Source of the DNA: Candidatus Latescibacterota bacterium
GTDB taxonomy: Bacteria; Latescibacterota; UBA2968; UBA8231
NCBI GenBank assembly: GCA_029941565.1
Contig: JAPYRN010000003.1
Coordinates: 107,358-171,357 of the forward strand
Length of the DNA: 64,000 bases
Reading direction: 5' to 3'
In this document: in pieces, positions 4,312 to 51,428 of the stretch
How positions within the stretch are numbered: the first letter of the stretch is position 1
Layout of the letters: each line of letters opens with the position of its first letter
Notes under the pieces: model-generated
What the model saw: only the letters and a program-made list of their open reading frames with translations
Databases searched by the model: none
What the model was told of the DNA's origin: nothing
Position numbers and translations under genes: made by a program

Positions 4312-4394
4312 GGGAGGATTTCTTCCTGGGCTTCGAGCAGAGGGCAGAATAAATTGGCCTACGATTCCTGTCAAAGCGCGCCAGGGGCACCCAG

Positions 4395-5543
4395 TTGACG
4401 GAAGTGGTCCCAAAGGGTCCCGTCGTCGCCCACTGCGCAACACCCTATCTGTGGGACGGTGGGGGGGCCTGGATCTACAATCAGATCGCCTGGCTGCAGC
4501 GTTGGCACCCGGTGGTCCTCACCCAGGAGGCACGCAATCTCGAGCAATATCCGGTGCCCGAGTTGCACTCAGCAGAGGATTTCAGCCCGCATCGGCGGCT
4601 GCTGAACCGCATCTGGCGACGATGCACGGGGGAATACGCATTCTATGACGACCTCCTGCGCGATATGGGGGCGCAGCTGGTCCATGCCCATTTCGGTTAC
4701 CAGGCCTGCCGCTGTCTGGGAGCGATCCGGTCCACGGGCCTGCCCCTGCTGACGACATTCTACGGTGCCGACGCGACCAGCTACGCGCGACAACCGGAGT
4801 GGCAGCGGCGGTATGTGGAGTTGTTTTACCGGGGACGGCTGTTTCTTGCCGAAGGTTCGACGATGGCGAAGCATGTCGCGGCCTCTGGTGCACCGGAAGA
4901 ACGGATCCGCATCCATCATCTCGGCGTCGATACGTCCCAGATTCCGTTCCGCGAACGCGAGCCAAAGGACACGGTACGGGTGTTGATGTGTGGTCACTTT
5001 CGCGAGAAGAAGGGTTTTCCCGATGGCCTCAGGGCGCTTGGACGGGCTGTGAAAGCGGCACCGGGAATCGATCTCCAGGTCGTCATGATCGGGGACGGAC
5101 CCGACCGCGGCAAGGTTCTCGAGGCGATCGGAGACTCGGGGCTTGGCGAGCGTGTTGAGTTAATGGGACTCAGGTCGTATAAGGAAGTCCTGCAAGAACT
5201 TGACTCCTGTGACCTTTTGCTTCAGCCAAGTCGAACCGCTACGGATGGAGATGCCGAAGGCGGAGCGCCCGTCATCCTGCTCGACGCCCAGGCAGCCGGC
5301 GTGCCGGTGGTGGCCACGACACATGCGGACATTCCAGAATATGTCATCGACGGCGAAAGCGGGCTGTTGGCTCCCGAGAAGGACCTCGAGGCGCTGACCG
5401 AGATCCTGCGAAAGCTGTTGACGACTCCGGAAAGCTGGGCACAGATGGGACGACGGGGGAGGCAACACGTGGAGCGCGAGTACGACGCTCGCCGTCAGGC
5501 ACAACGCCTGGAGGAGATCTACGACGAATTGGTCTCCGAGTGA
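4395..5543 (+). CDS. Glycosyltransferase family 4 (GT-B, group 1)
   Basis: 382 aa with a C-terminal GT4 signature (ESGLLAPEKDLEALTEILRKL, EGGAPVILLDAQAAGVPVVAT). Divergent from the GNAT gene. Confidence 0.75.
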   Translation: MTEVVPKGPVVAHCATPYLWDGGGAWIYNQIAWLQRWHPVVLTQEARNLEQYPVPELHSAEDFSPHRRLLNRIWRRCTGEYAFYDDLLRDMGAQLVHAHFGYQACRCLGAIRSTGLPLLTTFYGADATSYARQPEWQRRYVELFYRGRLFLAEGSTMAKHVAASGAPEERIRIHHLGVDTSQIPFREREPKDTVRVLMCGHFREKKGFPDGLRALGRAVKAAPGIDLQVVMIGDGPDRGKVLEAIGDSGLGERVELMGLRSYKEVLQELDSCDLLLQPSRTATDGDAEGGAPVILLDAQAAGVPVVATTHADIPEYVIDGESGLLAPEKDLEALTEILRKLLTTPESWAQMGRRGRQHVEREYDARRQAQRLEEIYDELVSE

Positions 5544-7395: not shown

Positions 7396-7807
7396 GGGCT
7401 GTCTCCCTTCGGGCGTACTCGCAGCACAGCGTGGGCGAGCACATTCATGAGCAGGTATCCCGGCGTGGGGACCGCCGAGAGGTGATGCCGCAAAAACTCG
7501 CCTCCCACTACGCCGGAGGCAACCACTTTCACATCGGTTTGCCGAATCCACTGATATCAGGCGGAAGGGGCGCCCACCACATTGGAAAGACTTTCCTCAG
7601 AATCCTCTGAACGCCGTTCTGTCGTACTTCATACAACTTACATATATACAATGATTTAAGATGTTTATTACGAGTGATGGGAGGGTGGCACACCCCTTGC
7701 TCAAAAGACCACATGGATCCGTATGCACACGCAGGCTTTTGCGTCGTCCTGGCAACGTCACAACGGGATCGACAATGATCGAAGGCATCTTCATTTCCGC
7801 TTGAGGC

Positions 7808-8259
7808 ATGTTACCAAAATCCACACGCCACGAAGCGATTGCCAACAACCTGGCCAACATCGAAGTGCCCGGTTTCAAGCGGGATGCCATGTTTCTGCGC
7901 GAAGTCCAGGAAGCGATTCCGGTGACTACCCGGACTGGCGGATCAACCGCTTCGATGGTATGTGGACGGACTTTGAGCAGGGCAAGCTCAGACGCACGGG
8001 GGGTATGTTCGGTGTAGCCATCTCCGGAAAAGGGTTCTTCGCCGTGCAGACACCGGACGGAGTCCAGTACACCCGCATTGGAACATTCGCCCGCAGCAAC
8101 CAGGGGGTCCTCGTCAATATGCTGGGCCAACCTGTGCTCGACGTGGGGCGAGCCTATCGATGTACCACCTTCTCGCAGCCTTTGATCGACGCCAATGGTA
8201 TCATCGAGGGTCGCGATGAACTGCTCGGTATCGATAAGGTTCTCGGCGTCGTCCGATGA
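7808..8259 (+). pseudogene. flgF: Flagellar rod protein remnant (FlgF/FlgB-like), frameshifted near 7920 and C-terminally truncated
   Basis: Frame 2 (7808-) reads MLPKSTRHEAIANNLANIEVPGFKRDAMFLREVQ, the rod-protein N-terminal motif. Frame 1 (to 8259) reads DFEQGKLRRTGGMFGVAISGKGFFAVQTPDGVQYTRIGTF, the FlgF/G core. The two frames do not join, and the total length is about 150 aa versus about 250 aa expected. Confidence 0.55.
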
Positions 8260-8299
8260 CGATGCCACACTTTGTGTCAGCATTGGAGAGGGAGTAATA

Positions 8300-9109
8300 G
8301 ATGAGCAGGGCCCTGTACACCGCTGCGACGGGCATGATCGCCCAACAGATGAACGTGGACAACATCGCCAACAACCTGGCGAATGTGACACGACAGGACA
8401 AAAAAAAGAAAGCTTGAGTTCCAGGATCTTCTTTATCAGCAACTGCGCCTCGCCGGGGCGACACAGAACGAGGGTGCGCAGGTGCCAGTAGAACTACAGA
8501 TAGGTTATGGCACACGCTCGGTGGCGACGCAGAGAATCTTTTCTCAAGGGACGGTGATCTCGACCCGGGCCTCGGTGCCGGTGCGCATTAAGGATATGGC
8601 TCGTCTGCAACTGGGTGAGGAGATACAGCTCACAGGCATGGGACTGATCATCGGCCAGGAGGGCACAGGGGACGGACGTCAGGCGAGTTTTACGCTGCGC
8701 ATGTTGGCCAACATGATGAAGCGCATGCAACTGGCGGTGGATCCAACCCAGATCCGGGTGCGCAATGTCGCCGCCGTGAGCACGACGGCGACGTTGTCTC
8801 CCTATCACCGTAAGGGGAGCCGCATAGATGTGCAGGTAGCCTCTCTCGGTGATGCCGAAACCCTCCAGAGGGCACGTTGTTGTGCACGCCACTTCTCGAC
8901 CAGATGGCCAGGTGTATGTGCAGGTGCAGGGCCCGGTGAGTGTTGGTGGCTTCAGCCTGGGTGGTGGTGATGCCGGTTCAGTGCTGAAGAACCACACCGT
9001 CGTAGGCAACATCCCGAATGGTGGTCTGGTAACGGCGGAAATAGAGCGTTTGCAGGACATGGACGGCCATATCGAACTCCTGCTCTTTGAGGGCAAGGGC
9101 ACAGTCTGA
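8300..9109 (+). pseudogene. flgG: Chimeric flgG 5' end fused by deletion to flgI internal region; multiple frameshifts
   Basis: [30 protein letters not shown] (FlgG N-terminus) then a frame break inside the A8 run at about 8395-8402. This is followed by FQDLLYQQLRLAGATQNEGAQVPVELQIGYGTRSVATQRIFSQG (FlgG), which runs directly into VRIKDMARLQLGEEIQLTGMGLIIGQEGTGDGRQASF...SRIDVQVASLGDAETL (FlgI). Two more frame changes at about 8865-8900 lead to RPDGQVYVQVQGPVSVGGF...GNIPNGGLV (FlgI). The flgG 3' part, flgH and the flgI 5' part are absent. Confidence 0.6.
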
Positions 9110-9393
9110 TCCGTGCCCAGGATATCATCCTCGAGTTGATGTATGCCCTGGATCAACAGTTGTTAGATGACGGCAATGAGTTGGCACTGAATCTGCAGCG
9201 ACTCTATCTGTACTGTTATCGCCGACTCGTACGCGCCAATACACGCCTTGATCGTGCAGCGATCGAAGAGGTGATCGAGTTGTTCAATAATCTCCTCGAG
9301 GCATGGGGAAAAGTGGCCGCCCAGAGCCCTGAAGGCCCACCTGTGCGAGATCGACCCTCGGTGGTCCTTCATCGATCTTCGGGACCAGAGTGA
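9106..9393 (+). pseudogene. fliS: fliS (flagellin-specific chaperone) 3' fragment, 5'-truncated at the junction with the flgI remnant
   Basis: LIRAQDIILELMYALDQQLLDDGNELALNLQRLYLYCYRRLVRANTRLDRAAIEEVIELFNNLLEAWGKV matches the C-terminal two-thirds of FliS. No N-terminal region or start codon is found. Confidence 0.5.
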
Positions 9394-9661
9394 ACGAGCT
9401 GCCCACCAGTTGCTCGACGACACCCGGCAGCAGTTACGTCAGGTCGGAAAAGGCCGCAGAGCATCCCGCGGCTATCACCGCCAGCCGTTCTCTCAAGAAG
9501 CCCGGTTCGTTGACAACGTGCGTTAAACGCTCAGCACCAGCTACCCTCTCCTCGTTCCACCCCGTGTGGCCCGCTCCGTACTCTGTCACAGGCGGATGTC
9601 ACCCCGATTGGGTGATTGTCCGATCCTGACGCCGGATCCTGACGCCGATGGTATATTGGGC

Positions 9662-9688
9662 TAAAGTTTCCAGGCGAAACGCCGATAT
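9662..9688 (+). promoter_or_regulatory. Sigma-28 (FliA) class promoter: TAAAGTTT-N11-GCCGATAT
   Basis: TAAAGTTT at 9662-9669 and GCCGATAT at 9681-9688, matching the FliA consensus TAAA-N15-GCCGATAA with exact spacing. It lies about 75 nt upstream of the flgM start. Confidence 0.6.
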
Positions 9689-9762
9689 ATACTGATAGAG
9701 CAGTAAAGCGATCGCGCCCGCAATCGCGGTTTGCGTCGCAACTCAGAGCGAAGGAACGCATC

Positions 9763-10335
9763 ATGCGCATCGACGGGGTACCTAACCTTCAGAAGGTTTC
9801 CCAGCCCAATCAGCGCACCGATTCCGCTTGTCCCCGCAACAAAGTGGGGCGAGGTGACGATTCCGTCGAAATCTCCAGTCCTTCAAAGGACGCGGCAGGG
9901 CTGACGGAAGCGCTGAAGGCGGCACCGGAGACAACGAACCCGCGGATTGGCGAAATTCGCGAGCGGGTCCAGTCCGGGTATTACAATTCCGAGGATATTC
10001 GTCGTGAGATTGCCGGCGCCATGCCCGATGCCGAAGGGATCAAGCCCGTCGTCAACGAAGTTGCCGAGGTCCGTGCCGCGCATCGTCAACTCGCCGAAGT
10101 GCCAGATGTGCGCCAGGACCGAGTAGCGGCATCACGGCAGCGCGCCGCGAAGGGTTCTATGATCAACCCGACGTACGCACGCAGACGGCGCAGTCCATCA
10201 TCGACGAGTCTGCGTAAGAAAGATTGTCAACGATCTGGTCAGCCGACCATTTTAGGGCGGCGGATGATAACTTTGAGGGATCGACCTTTTGGTCGGTCCC
10301 TTTTTTCTTTGAGACTCGTTTTCTCTGGGCGCTAA
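9763..10335 (+). CDS. flgM: Anti-sigma-28 factor FlgM homologue with an atypical ~90-aa C-terminal extension
   Basis: The first ~95 aa end in the FlgM C-terminal sigma-28-binding pattern (IGEIRERVQSGYYNSEDIRREIAGAM). The ORF continues to 10335 through a rho-independent terminator at 10277-10310. Confidence 0.6.
   Translation: MRIDGVPNLQKVSQPNQRTDSACPRNKVGRGDDSVEISSPSKDAAGLTEALKAAPETTNPRIGEIRERVQSGYYNSEDIRREIAGAMPDAEGIKPVVNEVAEVRAAHRQLAEVPDVRQDRVAASRQRAAKGSMINPTYARRRRSPSSTSLRKKDCQRSGQPTILGRRMITLRDRPFGRSLFSLRLVFSGR
10277..10310 (+). terminator. Rho-independent terminator: 10-bp stem, 4-nt loop, T-tract
   Basis: GGGATCGACC tttt GGTCGGTCCC forms a 10-bp stem with one G-U pair, followed by TTTTTTCTTT. 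Confidence 0.7.
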
Positions 10336-24309: not shown

Positions 24310-26053
24310 CTGCTGATTGCTCCTTCTTTATTGGTTGTGATGCCGGCACTCGCCGCCGCCGGAGCGCGCCCACGAAGCGGCACGCCTCGGCTCGCGTCAA
24401 CAGCGAGGGTGCCTGCCATCCACGTAGGCGCAGGTCGAAGCTGAGGCGCAATGGCGCCGGTGGTTCGATGGTGGGTTGTTCATCCTCCCGTTGCCGCGAG
24501 GCTGACTCCAGGATCTGGCGGGTCGCCCCCTGCCAGCGTACCCGACCCTGGTCCATGACGCAGACCTGCGAGGCGAGTTCGGCGACGCGGTCCATATCGT
24601 GGCTCACGAGCACAACGCTGACGCCATCCGCTGCCAGCCGGGAGAGCAGGTCGGCAACGACGGCTTCATTTGCAGGATCGAGTCCGGCTGTCGGTTCGTC
24701 GAGTACGATCACCGTCGGCGCGATGGCGAGTACCCCGGCGATGGCCGCCCGGCGGCGCTCACCACCGCTGAGGGCCAGTGGCGGGCGAGTGCCAAAAGCG
24801 GTGATGGGTAAATCCACCTTGCTCAGGGCGTCGGTGGTACGGTGTTCTATCTCTTCTGCTGAGCAGCCGTGGTTTCGTGGGCCGAAGGCGACGTCGGCGG
24901 CGACGGTCTCCTCGAAGAGCTGGTCTTCCGGGAACTGGAATACGAGCCCCACCTCACGCCTGGCACCGCGCCCATCACCATCATTCCAGATGTCCTCGCC
25001 ATCGAGACAGACGCGTCCGGATGTGGGGCGCAGCAGGCCGTTGAGGTGCTGCACGAGAGTTGTCTTGCCGGAGCCACTGGGTCCCACAAGGGCGGTGATT
25101 GATCCGGGGGGAATGGCGAGTTCTACATCCTGAAGGGCCATGATGGGATCCGGTACGCTGACACGATAGATATGGGTCAACCCCTCCACCGTCATTCGCG
25201 CAGCTCCCGAAGCAGGTTGGGAGGCGACCTCGCAGGACGCCTCCAGTGGGGCCTCGAAGTCACGCACAAGCCAATCGCTCAGCTCTACCGGGTCAATGGC
25301 TTGTGCAGCACCTCCTCCGGCGGCGACGGCAACCTCGACGGCAAAGGGGGCGGCGAGACCTATCCGCCTAAGACTTGCGGGTTGGCGGTAGATGTGGCGG
25401 GGTGTGCCATCGTCGACGAGCAGGCCCTCATGGAGTACGAGAATGCGCTCTGCCCGTGCCGCCTCCTCTGGCGATTGCGTGATGTGCAGCACGCCCAGGC
25501 CCTGCTGACACAGCTGCCCGACAAGGTCCATGAGTTCGGCCCGCGCCGTCGGGTCCAGCAGGGCTGTGGGCTCATCAAGGATCAGGAAATCAGGTTGCAC
25601 GGCGACGGCGGCGGCCACGGCAAGACGCTGCCGCTCACCGCCGGACAGCAGATGGGGTGGATGGCTGCGGTAGTGGTCGAGATGAAAACGTCGGAGTATT
25701 TCCTCCACTCGGCTTCGCATCTGTGTCGGTTCGACGCCGTGATTTTCAAGTCCAAATGCGATATCCGTTTCCACAGTGGGTGCGACGAGCTGATCATCTG
25801 GATTCTGGAAGACCATGGCGACGCGCTGGCGGATTTCTGCCACTGAGTCCCGAGCCACTGTCACGCCGTCAACGCGCACGGCCCCGGAGGTAGGCGTCAA
25901 CAGGCCGTTGAGGCACCGTGCCAGCGTGGTTTTGCCGGAACCATTGGCACCGATAAGCGCTGTCCACCGACCTGACTCGAGAGTGGCTTTAACGCCACGG
26001 AGGGCCGGGATGCCATTGGCGTGCACATACTCTAGCTGATCGATTTCGATCAT
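24287..26053 (-). CDS. Fused tandem ABC ATPase of ECF/CbiO type (EcfA-EcfA' duplication)
   Basis: Track ORF 24287..26353. Likely start ATG 26053 (MIEIDQLEYVH). Two complete NBDs with Walker A (GANGSGKTT, GPSGSGKTT), the signature LSGGERQR, and the ECF-type VFQNPDDQ motif. No adjacent T or S component. Confidence 0.75.
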   Translation of the reverse strand: MIEIDQLEYVHANGIPALRGVKATLESGRWTALIGANGSGKTTLARCLNGLLTPTSGAVRVDGVTVARDSVAEIRQRVAMVFQNPDDQLVAPTVETDIAFGLENHGVEPTQMRSRVEEILRRFHLDHYRSHPPHLLSGGERQRLAVAAAVAVQPDFLILDEPTALLDPTARAELMDLVGQLCQQGLGVLHITQSPEEAARAERILVLHEGLLVDDGTPRHIYRQPASLRRIGLAAPFAVEVAVAAGGGAAQAIDPVELSDWLVRDFEAPLEASCEVASQPASGAARMTVEGLTHIYRVSVPDPIMALQDVELAIPPGSITALVGPSGSGKTTLVQHLNGLLRPTSGRVCLDGEDIWNDGDGRGARREVGLVFQFPEDQLFEETVAADVAFGPRNHGCSAEEIEHRTTDALSKVDLPITAFGTRPPLALSGGERRRAAIAGVLAIAPTVIVLDEPTAGLDPANEAVVADLLSRLAADGVSVVLVSHDMDRVAELASQVCVMDQGRVRWQGATRQILESASRQREDEQPTIEPPAPLRLSFDLRLRGWQAPSLLTRAEACRFVGALRRRRVPASQPIKKEQSADARTDRE

Positions 26054-26243
26054 TTTTTCTGGCTTGCGTAGATGACTGGCTCCGCCGTCGGGGACAGTCC
26101 ATGGGAGAGTTCTCGTTGACACTCCGAAATCCCTCGGGTACCTTGGAATGGCCACCCATCTAAGGGCGCAAGATTCGACGCGCCCGTCAAGGGACCGACG
26201 TCGGTGCGTCGCCCGGATCCACACAACCGGAGTAGCCCCACAG

Positions 26244-27083
26244 ATGCTCAACGCCCTGTCGCGTCCTCTGCGCTTGCTGATTTGGCTCGTGGTTGTCGCT
26301 GGTTGCAGCGAAGATGACGACAATGTCACGCTGGCGGGCCCCGACTTTCCCACGGGGCCGGGCCGTTTCTACAATGTCGAGACGGTTTCCTTCGCTACCG
26401 TCGACGCCGTTTCCGTGTCGGCATCCTATGGCAGGTTGCCGGGAGCTGCCGCTCATCCAGTTGTCATCCTTGTACACGAAGTCGGTAGTATCGCAGCGGC
26501 GCAGGAGTGGTTGTACTCTGGTGTATTCGAAGAGTTGCTCGAAGGCGGGTACAACGTACTCGCTCTCGACTTGCGCGGTCACGGAAGCTCGACATTGCCC
26601 GATGATGGCCGGGATCAGGCTGTACTTCTTGTCACCGACCTGGAGGACATGCATCTCGAGGTCCGCGCCGCCGTCACCTGGTTGCGCACGCAACCCTCGG
26701 CCGACAACGCCCGGATCGCTGTGATTGGCAATGGGATTGGTGGGAACATCGCCTATGTCAGCATGGGTGCTTTTCCCGAGGATCTGCAAGCGGGCGTCGC
26801 CTTGTCCCCCGGATTCTGGGATCAGGAACTGCTGCCACTCGTCATCGGCGGTGGCATCACGCCATTTGCCCCGCATAGCATGCTGTATGTCGTAGGTGAG
26901 AGCGATCTGGTCGCTCTCAGCGATACGAGCCTGAGTTACGCGGGATTTGCGAGCCTGTTGGCATCGTCTACGGTGGACCCGAGCCTACAGGTGTTTCCCG
27001 GTGACTCCAATCATGGCCTCGCCCTGCTGCAATCGCCGACGACCTTACAGCTCATCCTCGAATGGTTGCAGACCCACCTCTGA
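26244..27083 (+). CDS. Alpha/beta-hydrolase fold lipoprotein (dienelactone-hydrolase-like)
   Basis: Track ORF 26148..27083. Start ATG 26244 gives a lipobox (LVVVAGC). HGSS/GNGIGG nucleophile-elbow-like segment. Confidence 0.6.
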   Translation: MLNALSRPLRLLIWLVVVAGCSEDDDNVTLAGPDFPTGPGRFYNVETVSFATVDAVSVSASYGRLPGAAAHPVVILVHEVGSIAAAQEWLYSGVFEELLEGGYNVLALDLRGHGSSTLPDDGRDQAVLLVTDLEDMHLEVRAAVTWLRTQPSADNARIAVIGNGIGGNIAYVSMGAFPEDLQAGVALSPGFWDQELLPLVIGGGITPFAPHSMLYVVGESDLVALSDTSLSYAGFASLLASSTVDPSLQVFPGDSNHGLALLQSPTTLQLILEWLQTHL

Positions 27084-27793
27084 GCACTTCCCGGAGATCA
27101 ACCACAACCGGGGCGGGCAAGATCGTCGTCGTCATTCCGGCGCTCAACGAGCAGGTCGCCATCCGTCTCGTGATCGCCGATATCCCCGACGTCGTTCACG
27201 AAGTCATCGTCGTTGACAACGGATCCGTCGATGACACCGCGGCTCATGCCGCCGCCGCCGGGGCGCGCGTCGTACATGAGCCCCAGCGCGGTTATGGGCG
27301 AGCCTGTCTGACCGGGATCGCCGCTCTCCCCGATGACACGGATATCGTGGTCTTTCTCGATGGTGACTATAGCGACCGCCCGGAAGAGATGGAGCGGCTC
27401 ATAGAACCCTTGAGGGACGGCGCGGCAGACCTCGTTATTGGCTCCCGCGTTCTCGGTGACCGGGAACCGGGTGCGCTGCTGCCGCAGGCACGGTTCGGCA
27501 ATGCCCTGGCGACCTTCCTCATTCGACTTTTCTACGGCGTTTCATACACCGACCTGGGTCCCTTCCGTGCCATCCGACGCGAAGCCCTGGAAAGGATTGG
27601 CATGGTCGATCAGGATTTCGGTTGGACGGTGGAGATGCAAGTCAAGGTGGCTCGTCATGGCCTGCGGGGTGTCGAGGTCCCCGTCAGCTATCGGCGACGT
27701 CACACCGGCGCCTCAAAGGTCACGGGGACGCTTGCCGGGACATTCCGGGCGGGCTGGAAGATCCTGTATACGATCTTCCTGCACGCTCGTTGA
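27062..27793 (+). CDS. Glycosyltransferase family 2, polyprenyl-phosphate sugar transferase type (ArnC/DPM1-like)
   Basis: VVIPALNE...VVDNGSVDDT...DGDYSD motifs. Confidence 0.75.
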   Translation: MVADPPLSTSRRSTTTGAGKIVVVIPALNEQVAIRLVIADIPDVVHEVIVVDNGSVDDTAAHAAAAGARVVHEPQRGYGRACLTGIAALPDDTDIVVFLDGDYSDRPEEMERLIEPLRDGAADLVIGSRVLGDREPGALLPQARFGNALATFLIRLFYGVSYTDLGPFRAIRREALERIGMVDQDFGWTVEMQVKVARHGLRGVEVPVSYRRRHTGASKVTGTLAGTFRAGWKILYTIFLHAR

Positions 27794-28090
27794 GAGGGTA
27801 GGTGGCTGTTCCTTGCCGTCCTCTGCGTAGTCCTGCTGCTGCGGCTGTGGGGGCTTGGTCAGGGTTATCCGGAATTCTACGGCCACGTAGACGAGATCGG
27901 CGTCGCCGCCAGTATCTGGAACTTCTTTCGGGAAGGGACCTTCGAGCCCACTGAATTCACCTATCCCGCCCTGTATCCGTATCTCGTCGCCGCGGGCATC
28001 TGGTGTTCGGCCGTTCTCGGCTTTGTCGACCTGCCCACCTGTGGCGACCTGCTCGAACGTATCGCTTTCACCTCCTACATCAATCCTGGA
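27794..28090 (+). pseudogene. 5' fragment of an ArnT/GT-C family membrane glycosyltransferase gene (no start codon, truncated after ~95 codons)
   Basis: The frame immediately after the GT2 stop reads WLFLAVLCVVLLLRLWGLGQGYPEFYGHVDEIGVAASIWNFFREGTFEPTEFTYPALYPYLVAAGIW..., an ArnT/PMT_2-like N-terminus. Homology ends where the inverted flagellin fragment begins. Confidence 0.45.
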
Positions 28091-28109
28091 TGGTCGGCCC
28101 TTTATAGGC

Positions 28110-28480
28110 CGCGTGCTCAGCATTGCCTCCACTGCTGCGTCCCGAATCGTCGATTCCCATGCTGTAACTCCCTCGATCGCGCGTTCCGTGAAGTCTAGAG
28201 TGTACTCCAGTCGGTTCATTGTGGCGCCGACGGTGCCGCGTTCACCAGCGACCCGGTTGATGGCCTCGTCGATCTTGGCCAGCGCTTGTCGCGAGCCGTC
28301 CCGCGTATTGACGGAGATGGTACTGAGATTGAGATGGTCATGTCCTCGAGGTCGTACTCCAGGCGATCGGCGGCGATGGCGTCACTGCCAAGCTGGAAGC
28401 TGCCTCCGATACCTTCATTGATGATCAGGGTGGTCCCATTCAGATCCCCGATCGTCCCATCACCAGAGATCTTCAGTTTT
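28110..28480 (-). pseudogene. Flagellin 3' fragment (variable region plus conserved C-terminal helix), 5'-truncated and frameshifted
   Basis: Reverse strand reads ...RQALAKIDEAINRVAGERGTVGATMNRLEYTLDFTERAIEGVTAWESTIRDAAVEAML, the flagellin C-terminal D1/D0 signature. A separate upstream frame carries variable-domain-like sequence. Confidence 0.5.
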
Positions 28481-28524
28481 TTTCACAAATCGGCCAATAT
28501 CTAAAAAAAAGTGCGACAAACTGC

Positions 28525-28551
28525 TAAAGTTGCGGTCAGATGGTTCCGATA
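28525..28551 (+). promoter_or_regulatory. Sigma-28-like promoter: TAAAGTTG-N-CCGATAG (spacing +1 relative to consensus)
   Basis: TAAAGTT at 28525-28531 and CCGATAG at 28546-28552, about 140 nt upstream of the flagellin start. Preceded by an unusual AT-rich T7/A8 segment at 28472-28510. Confidence 0.45.
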
Positions 28552-28690
28552 GACGGAACAGGAGGCGAGGGCTCGAGTCGCTTCACCTGGTTCTGGAGGG
28601 GATCGGGAGGGGTGAATAGGCGGGTTCCCGGCGGTCGGCGGGAGGGTTCTCTGGAGGGGGACCCTATCTGAGGAGCAAGGAGGCAATAAC

Positions 28691-29339
28691 GTGCCAATCA
28701 GAGTGAACCGCAGCATTTAGGCGATCAACGCGCAGCGCTCGATCTCGTGCAACGTAACGAGAGCCAATCGTCAGTTGGAGCGTCTGTCATCCGGTCTACG
28801 GGTGAATCGCGCCATGGACGATGCCTCTGGTCTCGTCGTCTCCGAAGGATTGCGGAGTGAGGCGGCGAAACTCAACCAGAACGTGCGCAATGCGCAACAG
28901 GGCTCGGTCCTGCTGCAGGTGGCCGGGTCATTGCAGGTGGTTAACAACATGTTCGTGCGCATGCGCTGAACTGGCGCTCCAGGCTACCGGGGTGGGCATC
29001 CCGGATCTTCGAGCCAGCGGAGCCGCCCTCAATCTGGGCCAGTTGTCGGTTTCAAGTATCGATGACGCGCGCTCCGCCATCGCTGGTATCGACCAGGCAA
29101 TCATCACTGTTTCGGCGGCGCGCGGTGATCTTGGCGCGGTGCAGAACCGGTTGGGTTTCTCCATTGGCTTTACCGAGGTGGAAATCGAGAATACCACCGC
29201 TTCCGACGCGACGATCCGCGATGCGGATATGGTTCTAGAAGTTACCGAGTTTACCCGTGCACAGCTGCTCCTGCAGACGAGTAACGCCATGCTGGTGCAG
29301 GCAAATGTGACATCCATCGGGGCGTTGTCCCTGCTCTAA
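28691..29339 (+). pseudogene. fliC: Flagellin (short FliC type, D0/D1 only) inactivated by TAG at codon 10 and a +1 frameshift
   Basis: AAGGAGG RBS 8 nt before GTG 28691. It reads VPIRVNRSI then TAG (28718-28720), then AINAQRSISCNVTRANRQLERLSSGLRVNRAMDDASG...VVNNMFVRMR, then a stop caused by an extra T at about 28957. Frame 0 then continues ELALQATG...GDLGAVQNRLGFSIGFTEVEIENTTASDATIRDADMVLEVTEFTRAQLLLQTSNAMLVQANVTSIGALSLL (flagellin C-terminus). Confidence 0.7.
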
Positions 29340-29385
29340 GGAATCCGGCCGATTTTCTTTCACACACGGCCAACCCTCCGGCGGG

Positions 29386-29429
29386 GAAGGGGCTGCCTCA
29401 TGGATGAGGCGGCCCCTTCTCATTTCTTG
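29386..29429 (+). terminator. Strong hairpin terminator downstream of the flagellin pseudogene
   Basis: GAAGGGGCTGCCTCAT gg ATGAGGCGGCCCCTTC forms a 16-bp stem with one G-U, followed by the T-rich TCATTTCTT. Confidence 0.6.
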
Positions 29430-29469
29430 ACCATCCTGTAGGTCGCCTGTAGCTTCGGCTGCCTGCCAG

Positions 29470-30543
29470 ATGCATATCGAAGAGTTCAACTTCGATCTTC
29501 CCGACGACCTTGTCGCCCAGTATCCTGCCGAACGCCGTGACGCGTCCCGGTTGATGGCACTCGATCGTCAGAATGGCGGTGTTGAGCATCTGCTCTTTGC
29601 CGATATCGTCGAGCGCTTGCGTCCGGAGGACGTCCTCGTCCTCAACGAGACACGTGTCGTGCCCGCCCGCCTTCGCGGGCACAAGGAGCGCACCGGTGGT
29701 CGGGTTGAATTGCTGCTGTTGCGGCGTGATCCAAAGGATGGCACCTGGCTCGCCCTGGCTCGCCCGTTACGCGGCCTGCAGTCGGGGGATTGGATCCAAT
29801 TAGATCGCGGATCCTGGAGACTGAAAGTGGTAGGCCGGGTTGGTGACCGAATTCGCCTGCGGATGCCTGCTGACGCCCACGGCGGCGCTGTCACTGACTG
29901 CGCAGATCCCACCGGACACGCGTCGGTGCTGTCCATGGAGCAGGAGGCAGGGGATATCCCCCTGCCGCCGTACATCCGGCGCGCCCCCGAATCGATAGAT
30001 TCTGACCGGTATCAGACTGTATTCGCCACCACTGATGGCTCAATCGCGGCGCCGACGGCGGGTCTACACTTCACCGAGCAATTGCTGACGGCCGTGCGGG
30101 ATCGGGGGGTTGGCGTGGAACGGCTGCTGTTGCATGTTGGCCCTGGGACCTTCGAGCCCGTGCGGACCGAGGATCCGCGTCAACATCAACTGGAAGCAGA
30201 ATTCTATCGGGTCAGTGCCACAACAGCGAACTGTATCGCTGAGCGTCGGCGGGCAGGTGGACGCTGTATCGCCGTCGGCACGACGACGGTGCGAACGCTT
30301 GAGACCTGCGCCATGGAGGGAGAGGTTCGCGCCGGGGAAGGCTGGACGGATCTGCTGATCTGCCCACCTCACGAATTCAACGTCGTCGATGCCATGGTGA
30401 CGAACTTCCATCTGCCGCGTTCGAGTCTGTTGTTGCTCGTCAGTGCACTCGCCGGGCAGCAACCGCTGCTGGCGGCTTACCAACTTGCCGTCGCCGAGAG
30501 ATACCGCTTTTACAGCTATGGTGACGCCATGTTTATCCACTAA
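29470..30543 (+). CDS. queA: S-adenosylmethionine:tRNA ribosyltransferase-isomerase
   Basis: MHIEEFNFDLPDDLVAQYPAERRDASRLM...LPPYI...HVGPGTF...; 357 aa. Confidence 0.9.
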   Translation: MHIEEFNFDLPDDLVAQYPAERRDASRLMALDRQNGGVEHLLFADIVERLRPEDVLVLNETRVVPARLRGHKERTGGRVELLLLRRDPKDGTWLALARPLRGLQSGDWIQLDRGSWRLKVVGRVGDRIRLRMPADAHGGAVTDCADPTGHASVLSMEQEAGDIPLPPYIRRAPESIDSDRYQTVFATTDGSIAAPTAGLHFTEQLLTAVRDRGVGVERLLLHVGPGTFEPVRTEDPRQHQLEAEFYRVSATTANCIAERRRAGGRCIAVGTTTVRTLETCAMEGEVRAGEGWTDLLICPPHEFNVVDAMVTNFHLPRSSLLLLVSALAGQQPLLAAYQLAVAERYRFYSYGDAMFIH

Positions 30544-46429: not shown

Positions 46430-47394
46430 TGGCTGAGCGCCGGCCGCCCGCCGCTGTGGACTCCATTCTGGATACGGTGGGCGCCACGCCGCTGATCGAG
46501 ATCCGCCGGATGCCAGCGAAGGGCTCGGCACGAATCCTCGGCAAACTGGAAGCCCTCAACCCAGCAGGCAGCGTCAAGGATCGGATCGGCCTCAGTATGA
46601 TCCGCGCTGCCGAGGCTGATGGCCAGTTGTGCTCGGGCATGACGATCGTCGAACCCACCTCGGGGAACACGGGGATCGCGCTGGCCATGGTCGCCGCGGC
46701 GTTGGGATATGATCTGGTGTTGACGATGCCCGATCACATGAGCAGCGAGCGGATTGCCGTGATGGCCGCCTATGGTGCGCACATCGAGTTGACTCCTTCC
46801 ACCCAGGACATGCCGGGGGCCATCCGTCGTGCTGAGCAGATCGTTGCACAGGATCCTGATCAGTACTTCATGCCACAGCAGTTTCGCAATGCTGCCAATC
46901 CACAGATTCACCGGCAGAAAACGGCGCGTGAAATCGTCGCTGCCACGGCGGGCCGGATCGACGCCTTTGTTGCCGGTGTCGGGACGGGGGGCACGATTAC
47001 CGGTGTCGGCTCGGTGTTGAAGCAGGAACTGGCCAATGTCCGCATCGTCGCCGTGGAACCCTCGCGCTCTGCCGTACTCACAGGTGGGGTGGCCGCCGTG
47101 CACGGCATCCAGGGAATAGGCGCGGGTTTCGTACCTCAGGTCCTGGATCGCGACGTGATCGATGAGGTCATCACCATCGACGATGAGGACGCCTTCTGCT
47201 GCACGCGGGCGCTCGCACGTGAGGAGGGACTGCTGCTGGGTCCTTCCTCAGGCGCGAATGTGGCGGTGTCGATGCGCGTCGCTCAGGCTCTCGGCCCGGC
47301 AGCGACTGTGGTCACCATCCTCAGCGATACGGGCTTTCGTTATTTCAGCGTCGATGGTTTTATCGACGACGCACCCACGGGCACAGCTACCTGA
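46426..47394 (+). CDS. cysK: Cysteine synthase (O-acetylserine sulfhydrylase)
   Basis: PLIEIRRM...LEALNPAGSVKDRIG...TSGNTGIALA...GVGTGGTITG. Confidence 0.88.
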   Translation: MMAERRPPAAVDSILDTVGATPLIEIRRMPAKGSARILGKLEALNPAGSVKDRIGLSMIRAAEADGQLCSGMTIVEPTSGNTGIALAMVAAALGYDLVLTMPDHMSSERIAVMAAYGAHIELTPSTQDMPGAIRRAEQIVAQDPDQYFMPQQFRNAANPQIHRQKTAREIVAATAGRIDAFVAGVGTGGTITGVGSVLKQELANVRIVAVEPSRSAVLTGGVAAVHGIQGIGAGFVPQVLDRDVIDEVITIDDEDAFCCTRALAREEGLLLGPSSGANVAVSMRVAQALGPAATVVTILSDTGFRYFSVDGFIDDAPTGTAT

Positions 47395-49957
47395 GCAACA
47401 CGCCTTTGCGAATTTTGAGCACCGGCGACGTCGGTGAATCCCAGCGAACAACGAACAGATAGACACCACTGGCCACATCCAACGCGTCGTCGTCTCGTCC
47501 ATCCCAGGATAGTACATGATGACCTGCGGACCTGGCTGGCAGTTCGATTCGGCGCAGGCGCTGACCGAGGGCATCGTAGACCTCGAATGTCACCTCTCCA
47601 GCCGCAGGCAGATCAAGTGACAGATTTGTCTCTGGGTTGAATGGATTGGGGTAGAGCTCTGAAAGGGCATATGCCATGGGGGTCGCATCGGCGTTATCGA
47701 CGGCGGTGACCTGGGCGGCTGGTGCCTCGACAACGGAGATCCCACGTGGTCCCCCGGCGGCGGCAAAGGTTCCGAGACTCTGGCGTGTGACGGAATCGAA
47801 GATATAGATCTCATCCGATTCGGCGGTGGTAACAAAGAGTCGGTCACCGGTGGGTGAGAATGTCAGCCCTCGCGGGTTGGCGCCCACCTGGATGGTGTCG
47901 ATGACCTGTCGCGAATCCAGATCGATGACGACGACGACACCTTCGGTGTGAGCGGTGACATACGCGAACTCGTCCTGCGGGCCGATGGCGACGGCAAATG
48001 CACCGGACACAGGCAGGGGGATGGCGGCTTCGATCGAATTACGCTCTGTGTCGATGATCGTCAGATCACGGCCGTTGATGCTGGTAACATATAGGTGCGA
48101 ACCATCTGCGTTGGTCGCCAGAGATCGTGGACCACCACCGACGGGAATGCGGGCAACGACTTGTCCATCTTCAACGGCGACTACGGCGTTGGATCGCAGA
48201 TCGGTGACGTAGACCCGCCTGCCACTGGTGGCGATGCCATACGGTCCCTCCACGAGGGCACCGACGGAGACAGAACTCAGAACCCGCCGTGATTCCAGGT
48301 TGATGGCGGTCAACAGCGACGCGCCCGAATTCGTCACATATAGCGTGCCACCGTCGGGGGACAGGGCCATGTCGAGAGGCTGTGCGGCGACGGAGATGCG
48401 ATCGGCAATGCGGAATGTCGCCGTTTCGATGACGGTAATTTCACTGGACTCGAGATTGGAGACGTATAGGAACTGGCCGTCGGGGGAGTGGAGGATCTGA
48501 ATGGGATCGTCGCCGAGGTCGACACGAGCCACTTCAACATCGGCCCCCGTATCGAATACACCGAGCACGCCGGCGTCACGCAAGACGGTGAAAGCCAGAG
48601 GTGCGCCGGAAAGACCGATCACGTCAAACTCGAGCCACCGACCGCCGGCTGGAAAATCCACAGAGATGCCCGTGGCAGACGACGCCGTCAATCGATACCG
48701 CACATGGGTACCCACGTGCTGCCCTGGAATCTGAGATCGAAACATGCCACCTCCAAGGGCCTCTGCCGTGATAGCGGAGACCTGCCCATCGATCTCGATG
48801 ATGACCTCGACGCGGACCGCATTGACGACATCGAAGAAGGTTGTATACGGGCCGATGGCGTCAGGGGTATTCCCCGGGCCGTCTACGGAGCGTACGAATG
48901 GCACACCTGGGGTGATGAAACCTGTCGTGAAGTCGATGTTGGACGAACCGATACCGCTCGTGACCAAGACGGGTAGGGCCGTCGAAGCGATATCGGTATT
49001 GCCGAAATACTCCAACGGAAAGTCAACATCCAGGGTGGCGAAGAGGCTGGAGAAATTGCTCGCGTCGAGACCGCCACTCACCGGTTCGATGGCGACCCGA
49101 TAGAGGCCCGTCGGCAACCCGCGAAGTGCATACGCACCACGATCACGAACTCCCGTTTCGGCGCCACTCAGGGTGCTGTAGAGTTCACCGGAATCGAGAT
49201 CGAGGGCCGTCACGTGAGCGCCGAAGACCCCCCGGCCTCCCGGTTCTTCGATACGTCCCGTTATGGCACCCGACATGGAGGAGAAGGCGAATGTGGGATA
49301 GAGGACGCGAAGCCCTGTAATGTCATCGGCGGCTAGCGATGATGCCTCGCCGGGACCGTCACCGAAATAGAAGGGGTTCATCGTCGGTCGCTGTACCGGG
49401 TCACCGGCCAACGGTGTGTGATCGAGTCCGACGAAATGGCCGATCTCGTGTACGGCGACGTCCCGTAGCAGGATTCGCCCAGGCGTCGGTTCGGCGGCAA
49501 AGCGGAAATCGCGGCCATTGAAGATGATGTCCGCATCGAAGATCTGGCCTGTCTGCGCATCGGAGTTGATACGCGTCACGGCGATGATGCCGCTACCATC
49601 AGGGGCGCCGAGAGTCGCACCGGTCTCATCGAAGATCAGCAGGTTGCGTCGATCTCGGCGCGAGGCGTCGCGCCCCGATGACAGGCCCTCATCAATGAAG
49701 CGCAGACGCGACCCTTCCACGTTCTCCCACACGGTAAAACTCTGCCGAAGGATGGCTGCCGTCTGCGCCGCGCCAAGGTCCGCAGAGCCGGCGGCGTCGA
49801 TGCGGAAAGGAACGTCATCCTCACCCCAGGAGGCCATAACGATGGGGCCGTTGCCGGACTGCGTACTCTGCACGAGGAAAGCGCTGGCAGGTGTCGCGGC
49901 GCCGAGTGAGGCTGCCACAGGCAGCCACAGCAGCAAGCAACGAATGGCGCCGATCAT
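47387..49957 (-). CDS. Secreted metzincin-type zinc metalloprotease with YVTN beta-propeller repeats and a T9SS-type C-terminal sorting domain
   Basis: Signal peptide; HEIGHFVGLDH (HExxHxxGxxH); repeated ...LYVTN.../...VYVTD... units; C-terminal ~80 aa NPFNPETNLSLDLPAAGEVTFEVYDALGQRLRRIEL...VYLFVVRWDS...LKIRKGVLLR typical of Por/T9SS sorting tails. Confidence 0.75.
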   Translation of the reverse strand: MIGAIRCLLLWLPVAASLGAATPASAFLVQSTQSGNGPIVMASWGEDDVPFRIDAAGSADLGAAQTAAILRQSFTVWENVEGSRLRFIDEGLSSGRDASRRDRRNLLIFDETGATLGAPDGSGIIAVTRINSDAQTGQIFDADIIFNGRDFRFAAEPTPGRILLRDVAVHEIGHFVGLDHTPLAGDPVQRPTMNPFYFGDGPGEASSLAADDITGLRVLYPTFAFSSMSGAITGRIEEPGGRGVFGAHVTALDLDSGELYSTLSGAETGVRDRGAYALRGLPTGLYRVAIEPVSGGLDASNFSSLFATLDVDFPLEYFGNTDIASTALPVLVTSGIGSSNIDFTTGFITPGVPFVRSVDGPGNTPDAIGPYTTFFDVVNAVRVEVIIEIDGQVSAITAEALGGGMFRSQIPGQHVGTHVRYRLTASSATGISVDFPAGGRWLEFDVIGLSGAPLAFTVLRDAGVLGVFDTGADVEVARVDLGDDPIQILHSPDGQFLYVSNLESSEITVIETATFRIADRISVAAQPLDMALSPDGGTLYVTNSGASLLTAINLESRRVLSSVSVGALVEGPYGIATSGRRVYVTDLRSNAVVAVEDGQVVARIPVGGGPRSLATNADGSHLYVTSINGRDLTIIDTERNSIEAAIPLPVSGAFAVAIGPQDEFAYVTAHTEGVVVVIDLDSRQVIDTIQVGANPRGLTFSPTGDRLFVTTAESDEIYIFDSVTRQSLGTFAAAGGPRGISVVEAPAAQVTAVDNADATPMAYALSELYPNPFNPETNLSLDLPAAGEVTFEVYDALGQRLRRIELPARSAGHHVLSWDGRDDDALDVASGVYLFVVRWDSPTSPVLKIRKGVLLR

Positions 49958-50589: not shown

Positions 50590-51428
50590 TTCGTTGCACG
50601 TCTCAGGTCAACAAAGCTTCGATGACAATGTCGTGCAGTTTGGGTCGCAGCTGCTGAAAGCCTCGGTCCCCTCTGTCCGGGTGCACACGATTGGTGAGCA
50701 GGATCACGTAAAGATCCAGCTTCGGGTCGATCCATAGTGACGTGCCAGTAAACCCGGTGTGGCCATACGCTGCGATGGAGAAACGACTGCCGGAGGGTCC
50801 GTCCGCGCCGGGTTTCTCCCAACCAAAAGCACGATTTGAGTCTGCAGGGGATCGTCGATAGGAGCGTACAACTCACCGGCACGGATCCCATCGAGGCGAT
50901 CACCTCCCAGATGCTCTAGCAGATCGCCGATGAGGATAGGGCTGATGTCGCTATACACCGTCTGTTGACCCGACGCACCTGACAATGGCGCTTGCAGGAA
51001 TCGCTGCATGGCGGCGCGCCGCCATGCGTTGCTCCACTCGAGTCCGGTGCCGTATCCCGTCGCAGGCGAAGCCCGGATGTCAGTCCTGCGGCGCGGCACA
51101 TGAGCAGCCGCACGGTGAGGGCCCGCTTGTTTTCAGGGTAGTAGTCCGGCAACAGGTCGCCGATGGGGGCATCGACATCGAGCTGACCTGACGTCGCCCA
51201 TTTCATGGCCAACCAGGTTGTGGCCAGGACCTTGGTAAGTGACGCCAGGTCATACAGCGTCGTCGACGTCAGGGGCCGTACCGTCGGTGTGATCTGCGCT
51301 TGACCGATCGGAATTTCGTGTCGCCCGCCAGCGCTACGAGCAGCGATCAGCGTGGCACCTGCCAAAATGCCATCGTCAACGGCATTGCGCAGCGCCGCAT
51401 CGACGTGTAAGAAAGGGTAGGAATTCAC
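50590..51428 (-). pseudogene. Beta-lactamase-family serine hydrolase (class C/esterase-like) split across three frames
   Basis: Frame 1 reads TLYDLASLTKVLATT (S-x-x-K) ...LTVRLLMCRAAGLTSG. Frame 2 reads YGTGLEWSN...YSDISPILIGDLLEHLGGDRL. Frame 3 reads GSRFSIAAYGHTGFTGTSLWIDPKLDLYVILLTNRVHPDRGD...KLHDIVIEALL. Confidence 0.55.

Follow-up and report, generated by a model that had tools for sequence, protein, structure and literature searches.

Remnants of a back-to-back flagellin gene pair and of a neighbouring PMT_2 glycosyltransferase gene in an uncultured Latescibacterota bacterium

We analysed a 64,000-nucleotide stretch of a Candidatus Latescibacterota contig, called the window hereafter, which carries a broken flagellin locus. 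Judged from sequence comparison, the segment 27802-29339 holds what is left of two divergently oriented flagellin genes, named Fla(+) and Fla(-), and of the neighbouring gene for a PMT_2 glycosyltransferase. It is an ordinary pseudogene locus, though an exceptionally well documented one, as a sister population has other deletions in Fla(+). Relative to the intact orthologues, it shows a nonsense codon, frameshifts and three deletions. Very probably, the PMT_2/Fla(-)/Fla(+) locus is a non-functional remnant whose decay would have followed the loss of flagellar motility, and no filament protein would be expected from it. The interval between GT2 and queA should be annotated as free of protein-coding genes and as containing the remnants of PMT_2 and of both flagellins.

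We compared the window with syntenic loci of relatives to define the arrangement from which this locus derives. The intact order, hydrolase, GT2, PMT_2 glycosyltransferase, flagellin(-), flagellin(+) and queA, is present in more than 20 related genomes, namely in three loci (L011-L013) and in some 20 GTDB species representatives, among them the closest, L021; the representatives found all belong to species other than the window's own. Thirty-seven related loci were retrieved, and in about 20 of them the flagellins have the position between GT2/PMT_2 and queA-ispDF; the window flagellins occupy the same orthologous position as those of L011-L013 and L021. A reading made earlier from the window alone (hereafter the sequence-only reading) had proposed a former tandem or inverted pair, partly deleted. 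The relatives do have an intact divergent pair at this exact site, head-to-head between PMT_2 and queA, and this excludes the tandem. The intact flagellin orthologues are 373-388 aa long. Another relative, L014, has an N-terminal Fla(-) fragment that is separated from Fla(+) by an IS transposase gene. In the following, retained residues are mapped on the intact L021 genes and DNA breakpoints against L016 and L021. The ancestral locus would have consisted of PMT_2 (+), Fla(-) and Fla(+), the two flagellins sharing an intergenic region with one sigma-28-type promoter each, and three deletions would have shrunk it from about 3.9 kb to about 1.5 kb in the window lineage. The first (about 1.5 kb) would have removed the greater part of PMT_2 together with the 3' end of Fla(-), the second (about 0.9 kb) the 5'UTR and codons 1-241 of Fla(-), and the third (513 bp) codons ~102-271 of Fla(+), which encode the variable domain in full and the last part of the N-terminal D1 helix region. 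Smaller lesions may have been added afterwards: the change of codon 10 from TCG to TAG, the loss of a GAG codon, the inserted T's at 28967 and 27809, and the Fla(-) frameshift. The promoters, the RBS and the terminator would be relics that have had too little time to decay. The coordinates are collected in the table.

Table. Features of the decayed flagellin locus, in window positions
Feature	Position	Strand	Details and evidence
PMT_2 (ArnT/GT39-like) membrane glycosyltransferase, 5' remnant	27802-28121	+	~codons 1-105 of 564; tblastn
Deletion junction 1	28122-28138		~1.5 kb missing vs L016
Internal Fla(-) remnant	28139-28449	-	codons 242-349 of 388; tblastn with L021 Fla(-), Pfam
Relic sigma-28-like promoter of Fla(-), putative	28449-28475	-	TGAAGATC, 11 nt, GACGATCG; assigned from the consensus only
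AT-rich spacer between the back-to-back promoters	28477-28510		T7 28477-28483, A8 28503-28510
Sigma-28-like promoter of Fla(+), predicted	28525-28552	+	TAAAGTTG 28525-28532, 12 nt, TCCGATAG 28545-28552
Shine-Dalgarno AAGGAGG	28677-28683	+	7 nt upstream of GTG 28691; kept in L016, L021
Dead flagellin Fla(+)	28691-29339	+	215 of ~386 codons left
Fla(+) N-terminal segment, codons 1-93	28691-28966	+	84% identical to L021 Fla(+) residues 1-93
Inserted T (CGC-T-GAA), frame-shifting	28967	+	L016 orthologue without it: CGCATGCGC-GAACTGG
Rest of Fla(+), shifted frame	28968-29339	+	translation
Terminator-like GC-rich hairpin after Fla(+)	29384-29421	+	15-17 bp stem; RNA fold

Fla(+) starts with a GTG, and its codon 10 is a TAG (28718-28720, reading VPIRVNRSI-stop-AINAQ), exactly as the sequence-only reading had it. 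The same reading had placed an extra T, splitting the two halves into different frames, near 28957; the T is there but lies 10 bp further on, at 28967. The N-terminal frame consequently ends at TGA 28967-28969, and the C-terminal part continues in the next frame to TAA 29337-29339. In addition, alignment to L016 revealed that one GAG codon is missing between 28924 and 28925. The largest lesion is an in-frame loss of 513 bp (171 codons) at deletion junction 3, at about 28990, where ELALQATG (28968-28991, ~codons 94-101) is fused to codons 272-386 (from VGIPDLRASG to SLL and the stop codon). The window has nothing that corresponds to L016 positions 4089-4601, and the gap is also visible in the protein alignment. 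The C-terminal segment is 79% identical to residues 272-386 of L021 Fla(+). After repair of the frame, Pfam finds Flagellin_N (E = 1.9e-17) at profile positions 1-104 of 139 only and Flagellin_C (E = 8.3e-18) at positions 2-86 of 86. With the TAG, the extra T and 171 missing codons, Fla(+) has no uninterrupted full-length frame comparable to that of its 386-aa L021 orthologue and, as its sequence reads, is what remains of a gene rather than a working member of the family. An exact look-up of the 172-aa ORF at 28821-29339 found it not to be on record. The 513-bp deletion alone, without the TAG and the extra T, would leave an in-frame protein of 215 aa.

We ran tblastn across the region with the L021 flagellins and PMT_2, and matches were obtained in both flagellin pieces and in the PMT_2 remnant. 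With L021 Fla(-), residues 285-349 match 28333-28139 (82% identity) and residues 242-284 match 28449-28321 (67%) in a different frame, which places a frameshift inside the fragment at about 28321-28333. The piece is indeed 5'-truncated and on the opposite strand, as first described, but it is not a 3' fragment: it keeps 108 of 388 codons and is truncated on either side, with the final 39 codons gone. It is the orthologue of Fla(-), since its identity to Fla(+) is only about 43%. Pfam finds Flagellin_C in it (E = 3.4e-07, profile positions 1-49 of 86), and the flagellin matches in both window pieces exclude a chance resemblance. Next to it, residues 3-101 of the intact L021 PMT_2 match 27806-28102 with 76% identity; this remnant has no PMT_2 match in Pfam and was identified only by tblastn with intact orthologues. 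An extra T at 27809 shifts its frame after the GTG at 27802. At junction 1, homology to L016 runs to 28121 (L016 1645) and resumes at 28137 (L016 3160), so that PMT_2 codons ~102 to 564 are missing together with the end of Fla(-). The destruction of PMT_2, the Fla(-) frameshift, the lost GAG codon and the 171-codon deletion had all been overlooked by the sequence-only reading.

The predicted promoter of Fla(+) lies exactly where it had first been located; by sequence, it matches the sigma-28 (FliA) class III consensus TAAAGTTT, ~11 nt, GCCGATAA, and its boxes and spacing are kept in L001, L016, L011 and L021. A near-consensus sigma-28 site is also present at 9662-9687, before flgM, with 0 expected by chance. 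No fliA gene was found within the 64-kb window. A scan of the region for sigma-70 promoters found none. The strong AAGGAGG RBS was found as announced. The terminator, first described with a 16-bp stem, is a hairpin with a 17-pair stem in the scan, and its RNA fold has an energy of -46.3 kcal/mol (z = -4.1; 0 of 200 shuffles fold as well). A sigma-28-type promoter together with a terminator is typical of class III flagellar genes. On the minus strand, the intact L021 has a putative Fla(-) promoter, TGAAGTTT, 11 nt, GACGATAA, and homology of the window to the L021 intergenic region begins at CGATCGTCCC. Deletion junction 2 is therefore at about 28448, right at the -10 box of the relic Fla(-) promoter, and about 0.9 kb is lost there, comprising the 5'UTR, the RBS and Fla(-) codons 1-241. 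The AT-rich T7...A8 tract had been taken for the junction. It exists, but runs of T and of A occupy this position in L021 and L011, both intact, and also in L016, so the spacer is native DNA.

Other assemblies with the window allele were found through the queA protein. In L017 (GCA_029935935.1) and L018 (SRR21607485), the sequence spanning the TAG and T28967 matches the window allele at 100% identity; L020 (GCA_029936015.1) starts at 28737, covers only T28967 and carries it. This recurrence excludes a random sequencing error, although these assemblies may stem from one project or sampling site and could share a systematic artefact. A second, sister allele was found in ten contigs (L001-L010) from different samples, 98.5% identical to the window (range 97-99%), all with TCG at codon 10. 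It lacks 28848-28990 but has 236 bp of the variable region that is missing from the window. Since the sister allele deletes another, overlapping segment, the two Fla(+) deletions are independent; with the sense codon, this indicates that the common ancestor still had every Fla(+) segment. The claim that the gene was recently functional is thus plausible. Junction 1 is common to both alleles, with an unbroken alignment from 26000 to 28334, while T27809 is found in the window allele only. Substitutions between the alleles amount to 2.5% in the remnants and intergenic DNA, 0.85% in the neighbouring genes and 2.1% at the third codon positions of these neighbours. By codon position, the remnants differ at 3/6/4 sites, a small sample of 13 coding differences on which the test rests; in queA, GT2, ispDF and VTT, positions 1 and 2 together account for 8 differences and position 3 for 28 (Fisher p = 0.005). 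The substitution pattern of the remnants is neutral, with no codon-position bias.

A second scar, at 7.7-10.3 kb of the window, contains fragments of FlgF/G and FlgI as well as FlgM, and its main deletions are common to the sister population. Basal-body genes were thus lost before the populations split, and as far as these sequences tell, this points to a loss of motility that preceded the split. Divergence of the remnants at about the neighbours' third-codon-position rate since then indicates relaxed selection over the whole period. The likely cause would be loss of flagellar motility in the species: without it, selection would no longer have maintained the flagellin genes, and the deletion bias common in bacteria may now be erasing them, with different pieces going in the two sister populations. 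The species is probably non-motile, although flagella-encoding members of the phylum have been reported (PMC4454575). This comes with the reservation that 64 kb of the genome were seen and that an intact flagellin or a complete flagellar set may exist elsewhere. The order of events can be outlined from these comparisons: the basal-body genes and Fla(-) would have gone first and Fla(+) later.

We weighed other explanations against decay. The lesions could be sequencing or assembly artefacts, the gene being intact in the organism: the window resembles a metagenome-assembled genome, T28967 and T27809 are single-base indels beside short homopolymers, a typical error type, and flagellins are split in some related MAGs (L016, L053), possibly by error. 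Against this, the junctions, like the TAG and T28967, are identical in L017 and L018, the sister allele recurs in ten contigs with junctions of its own, and substitutions in the remnants look neutral, so that an artefact is extremely unlikely. Moreover, there are no repeats at the deletion junctions and homology is clean on either side, which means that the three large deletions are no assembly collapse. Programmed recoding, in which the TAG would be read through or reassigned and CGC-UGA-A would act as a prfB-type +1 site to give a 215-aa mini-flagellin, would suit a frameshift located, as in prfB, right at an in-frame UGA, halves that are in frame once repaired, and an intact promoter, RBS and terminator. 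Yet TAG ends 19 of the 59 ORFs, including rplM, rpsI and frr, and is an ordinary stop here; together with the TCG of the sister allele, this rules out reassignment or read-through. The programmed frameshift is ruled out likewise because the T is not conserved, being absent in L016, while the intact L021 gene reads straight through (VRMRELSIQ) in one frame. Furthermore, from the sequence, CGC would be unable to re-pair on GCU, and the product would miss Flagellin_N profile positions 105-139 and the conserved Glu of the AEG motif. We consider that a recoded flagellin is scarcely credible.

The inverted fragment might also belong to a flagellin variation system, as a silent cassette or as part of an invertible phase-variation switch, given that this partial copy and the start of a flagellin gene are about 240 bp apart and that it is precisely the variable region in which the two alleles of the species differ. 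However, no inverted repeats were found in 27500-29600 and no recombinase among the neighbours (hydrolase, GT2, queA, ispDF). The fragment, itself frameshifted, is the orthologue of a full-length Fla(-) that has its own promoter in the relatives (82% vs 43% identity), and the allele differences are deletions and not exchanges. An invertible element or silent cassette is therefore ruled out, and the chance left to a variation system in any form is minute. Finally, the Fla(+) lesions could have been the primary cause of the loss of motility, arising in each population independently, for example under phage or grazer pressure, with the other machinery intact. In the parts that both Fla(+) alleles retain, they have no disabling lesion in common, which fits independent and possibly selected knock-outs. 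This is contradicted by the divergence of the remnants at the near-neutral rate of the neighbours' third codon positions since the split, and by the flgF/G-flgI-flgM scar that both populations share; we regard it as very unlikely, if a little less so than the explanations above.

Altogether, the locus is of modest value: it shows, at the population level, gene loss under way in an uncultured, probably marine lineage, in which two alleles about 1.5% apart co-exist with independent, overlapping deletions of one dead gene. Having two such alleles makes it possible to reconstruct the ancestral gene, to outline the order of events and to see the deletion bias directly. GT2 and the lipid-carrier-dependent, ArnT/GT39-like PMT_2 form a pair that faces Fla(-) tail-to-tail in about 20 species representatives, and in L011, the stops of PMT_2 and Fla(-) overlap by 4 bp. 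That the pair would be a dedicated glycosylation system for the flagellin or filament in this clade is an unlikely, speculative reading. If it were true, the 1.5-kb co-deletion of PMT_2 and Fla(-) would be the loss of a functional module and not collateral damage. PMT_2-type glycosyltransferases act on the outer face of the membrane, and for such an enzyme to serve the filament of the flagellum would be mechanistically unusual.

Both window pieces match the family profiles of bacterial flagellin (FliC/FlaA; PF00669 Flagellin_N, PF00700 Flagellin_C). The closest flagellins are those of 373-388 aa of Latescibacterota and allied MAGs, and the pieces are 79-84% identical to the syntenic intact L021 genes. 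Compared with an intact flagellin, neither piece has an unbroken reading frame, 171 codons are missing from Fla(+), the last part of the N-terminal D1 region among them, and Fla(-) is reduced to 108 of 388 codons. The likeness to the +1 frameshift of prfB, where the frame also changes at a UGA and the downstream frame is +1, is superficial: unlike in prfB, there is no conservation in relatives and no P-site tRNA re-pairing, and the inserted T is a derived mutation. A literature search on flagellin pseudogenes returned only papers on Campylobacter and other pathogens. Decay of flagellar genes is known from non-motile lineages such as Shigella, Yersinia pestis, Burkholderia mallei and insect endosymbionts. 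Unlike these lineages, the window organism is uncultured, seen in metagenome assemblies only and not known as a host-restricted pathogen; there is no IS in the window locus, and decay is mainly deletional. As in these lineages, nonsense mutations, frameshifts and deletions are mixed in flagellin and basal-body genes, relic promoters stay in place, a relative (L014) has an IS transposase gene at the locus, and related strains differ in their lesions.

The flagellin locus was compared with its counterparts in relatives. A protein search with the repaired flagellin returned full-length relatives of 345-375 aa, those named being labelled Candidatus Latescibacterota, Handelsmanbacteria or KSB1. In the contigs encoding P0006 (L011-L013), the order is alpha/beta hydrolase (+), the glycosyltransferase gene GT2 (+), PMT_2 (an ArnT/GT39-like membrane glycosyltransferase of 562 aa, +), a 388-aa flagellin (-), a 373-aa flagellin (+) and queA, with ispDF, a VTT-domain protein, rplM, rpsI, rpsB, tsf and frr downstream, and the window has the same flanking genes on both sides. 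When GTDB species representatives were scanned, the block from hydrolase to queA held both flagellins at full length in about 20 of 37 related loci, including that of the closest representative, L021 (Candidatus Latescibacterota Fu_MAG_110). Therefore, the ancestral state was a flagellin pair arranged head-to-head, with PMT_2 meeting the minus-strand gene, Fla(-), tail-to-tail. The sequence-only reading, which had proposed a comparison of syntenic loci, had supposed a former pair partly deleted, and an intact pair indeed lies between PMT_2 and queA in relatives. What that reading saw is borne out and the core of what it concluded is supported, with the corrections given below.

Damage was also seen elsewhere. 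In L014 (7588-9821), an IS (DDE) transposase gene separates the plus-strand flagellin, Fla(+), from a 156-aa N-terminal piece of Fla(-). In L016 (3039-4953), Fla(-) is reduced to its start-codon region and a C-terminal remnant by a deletion that differs from the window's, Fla(+) is split into ORFs of 216 and 165 aa, and PMT_2 is intact. Some of these lesions could be MAG errors. For three GTDB representatives (L026, L042, L053), tblastn suggested that one member of the flagellin pair is internally deleted or frameshifted, which could be recurrent decay or, again, MAG errors.

In the window, the Fla(+) frame starts at GTG 28691 and translates as VPIRVNRSI*AINAQRS...VRMR*. Codon 10 is TAG (28718-28720), as previously read. 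This frame stops at TGA 28967-28969, and the next one, from 28968, continues as ELALQATGVGIPDLRASG...SLL to a stop at 29337-29339. DNA alignment against L016, the breakpoint reference at about 75% DNA identity to the window, placed a single extra T at 28967 (CGCATGCGC-T-GAACTGG); the split of the frames is thus real, but the base had been assigned to about 28957. In the same alignment, a GAG codon is gone between 28924 and 28925, changing the conserved VAEGS to VAGS, and window positions 28982 and 28988 correspond to L016 4088 and 4602, so that 513 bp, or 171 codons in frame, are missing. This deletion is the main Fla(+) lesion; it had been overlooked, as had the destruction of PMT_2. Masking the TAG and joining both frames gave a 215-aa product that matched Flagellin_C at full length (8.3e-18) and Flagellin_N at profile positions 1-104 of 139 only (1.9e-17) in Pfam.

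Features of the two flagellar scars; residues kept were mapped against the intact L021 proteins
Feature	Detail	Coordinates	Strand	Remark
Fla(+), L021 orthologue 386 aa	residues 1-93 kept	28691-28966	+	84% identity
Fla(+), L021 orthologue 386 aa	residues 272-386 kept	28992-29336	+	79% identity
Fla(-), L021 orthologue 388 aa	residues 242-284 kept	28449-28321	-	67% identity, own frame
Fla(-), L021 orthologue 388 aa	residues 285-349 kept	28333-28139	-	82% identity, different frame from 242-284
PMT_2, L021 orthologue 564 aa	residues 3-101 kept	27806-28102	+	76% identity
Fla(+) sigma-28-like promoter	TAAAGTTG, 12-nt spacer, TCCGATAG	28525-28532, 28545-28552
Fla(+) ribosome-binding site	AAGGAGG	28677-28683	+
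Terminator hairpin	stem 15-17 bp	29384-29421		z = -4.1
Degenerate Fla(-) sigma-28-like promoter	TGAAGATC, 11 nt, GACGATCG	28475-28449	-
T7 run		28477-28483
A8 run		28503-28510
FlgE/F/G	D1-domain fragment	ORF 7723-8259
FlgI	N-terminal 96/343 profile positions	ORF 8482-8970
FlgM-domain ORF		9763-10335		long abnormal tail, ~100 aa, looks like read-through
Near-consensus sigma-28 site	TAAAGTTT, 11 nt, GCCGATA	9662-9687	+	whole site TAAAGTTTCCAGGCGAAACGCCGATA

Two minus-strand frames within 28139-28449 (GDLNGTTLIINEGIGGSFQLGSDAIAADRLEYDLEDMT and LNLSTISVNTRDGSRQALAKIDEAINRVAGERGTVGATMNRLEYTLDFTERAIEGVTAWESTIRD) matched Flagellin_C when joined (3.4e-07, profile positions 1-49 of 86). At only about 43% identity to Fla(+), this fragment is therefore the orthologue of Fla(-) rather than a copy of the plus-strand gene. 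It had been described as an opposite-strand, 5'-truncated flagellin, which holds, but it is an internal piece cut at both ends (residues 242-349 of 388 in L021). At the PMT_2/Fla(-) junction, window 28121 and 28137 correspond to L016 1645 and 3160, with about 1.5 kb gone, and PMT_2 is destroyed as well. GT2 (27062-27793), upstream of the destroyed PMT_2 (27802-28121), remains intact, and purifying selection still acts on it (9 of 11 differences at third codon positions); left without its usual partner, it either has another acceptor enzyme or is next to decay.

The sigma-28-like promoter, ribosome-binding site and terminator ascribed to Fla(+) are all present. On the L021 minus strand, TGAAGTTT, 11 nt and GACGATAA form a sigma-28-like promoter for Fla(-), of which the window keeps a degenerate version. 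The Fla(-) deletion starts directly at its -10 box, and homology to the intact L021 intergenic region resumes at CGATCGTCCC (28449). The T7 and A8 runs, earlier taken to mark a junction, occupy the equivalent place in L021, L011 and L016, and the tract is the native spacer between two divergent promoters, not a junction.

An exact look-up of the window QueA protein found four more contigs. Two of them, L017 (GCA_029935935.1, 99.99% identical to the window) and L018 (Logan SRR21607485, 100%), have the TAG, T28967 and all junctions; L020 (GCA_029936015.1), which begins at 28737 and covers T28967 only, has that base. A different structure was found with P0005, a gene call of 203 aa annotated as 'flagellin' that shares 96% identity with the C-terminal half. 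Through it, ten contigs (L001-L010) were reached in several metagenomes, syntenic with the window and 97-99% identical to it. In this sister allele, codon 10 is TCG (Ser), window 28848-28990 is missing with an out-of-frame junction, and 236 bp of variable region gone from the window are kept (...ALDGAVVASG...FQVGPTDSFFNRLE). Also missing are 28335-28445 of the Fla(-) remnant and T27809, the base that throws the window's PMT_2 remnant out of frame past the GTG start codon (27802). Since each allele retains Fla(+) sequence missing from the other, their common ancestor still possessed every one of these segments, and the Fla(+) deletion arose separately in each allele. Both alleles share the PMT_2/Fla(-) 3' junction and, on its right-hand side, the boundary of the Fla(-) 5' deletion (CCCCGATCGTCCC), and these are therefore older.

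Comparison of the alleles gave 19 differences over 750 positions (2.5%) in the Fla(+) remnants and intergenic region, against 0.85% overall and 2.1% at third codon positions in the neighbouring genes. The 13 substitutions in the coding remnants fall 3/6/4 over codon positions 1, 2 and 3, against 8 at positions 1 and 2 together and 28 at position 3 in queA, GT2, ispDF and the VTT gene (Fisher p = 0.005, or 0.02 with the hydrolase gene added; small numbers). This pattern is as expected, on these small numbers, if Fla(+) had been neutral ever since the populations split. Between the alleles, the alpha/beta hydrolase (DLH) gene (26241-27083) itself shows a 3-bp indel at 26501 and substitutions distributed 1/5/3 over codon positions, unusually non-synonymous for a neighbour gene, which may indicate relaxed or diversifying selection.

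At the first flagellar scar, about 2.6 kb are left (7723-10335), far less than an undamaged flg cluster would require. The sigma-28 site there, 76 bp upstream of the flgM ORF, is the sole match in 64 kb (0 expected by chance) and could be either a relic or a still-active class III promoter. A sister-population contig (L058) is collinear with the window through this scar, minus 8349-8565 (217 bp) and 9821-10137 (317 bp), the latter loss destroying flgM. The main collapse of the flg cluster therefore predates the population split, and deletional decay is continuing here too. Elsewhere in the window, a 170-aa ORF (50916-51428, -) matching Beta-lactamase profile positions 2-110 of 329 only may be another truncated gene, and an 856-aa protein (47387-49957, -) joins a Peptidase_M10 domain and beta-propeller repeats to a FlgD_ig domain at its C-terminus. 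In spite of that domain's name the gene is not flagellar; its product resembles a secreted protease ending in an Ig-like domain.

From the shared flg scar and the neutral divergence, we infer that the common ancestor of both populations had already lost flagellar motility; the remaining flagellar genes, Fla(+) included, would then have decayed independently in each. Less likely is the reading in which non-motility arose primarily from the flagellin lesions, since both populations have the basal-body scar and the remnants diverge neutrally. A sequencing or assembly artefact is excluded for practical purposes by the recurrence of the window allele in other assemblies, by a sister allele with its own deletions and by the neutral substitution pattern. 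Programmed recoding, with read-through of the TAG and a +1 frameshift, is excluded: TAG is an ordinary stop here, terminating 19 of 59 candidate ORFs (rplM, rpsI and frr among them), neither site is conserved, re-pairing of CGC in the +1 frame is impossible, and a portion of domain D1 would be absent from the product. Also excluded is a variation cassette or invertible switch, since no inverted repeats were found in 27500-29600, no recombinase is among the neighbours and the minus-strand fragment is orthologous to a full gene.

Published Latescibacteria single-cell genomes encode flagella (PMC4454575), consistent with a flagellated ancestry. The locus adds a case to a familiar process, the decay of flagellar genes after motility has been lost, and is of local interest in that its two alleles document independent deletions.
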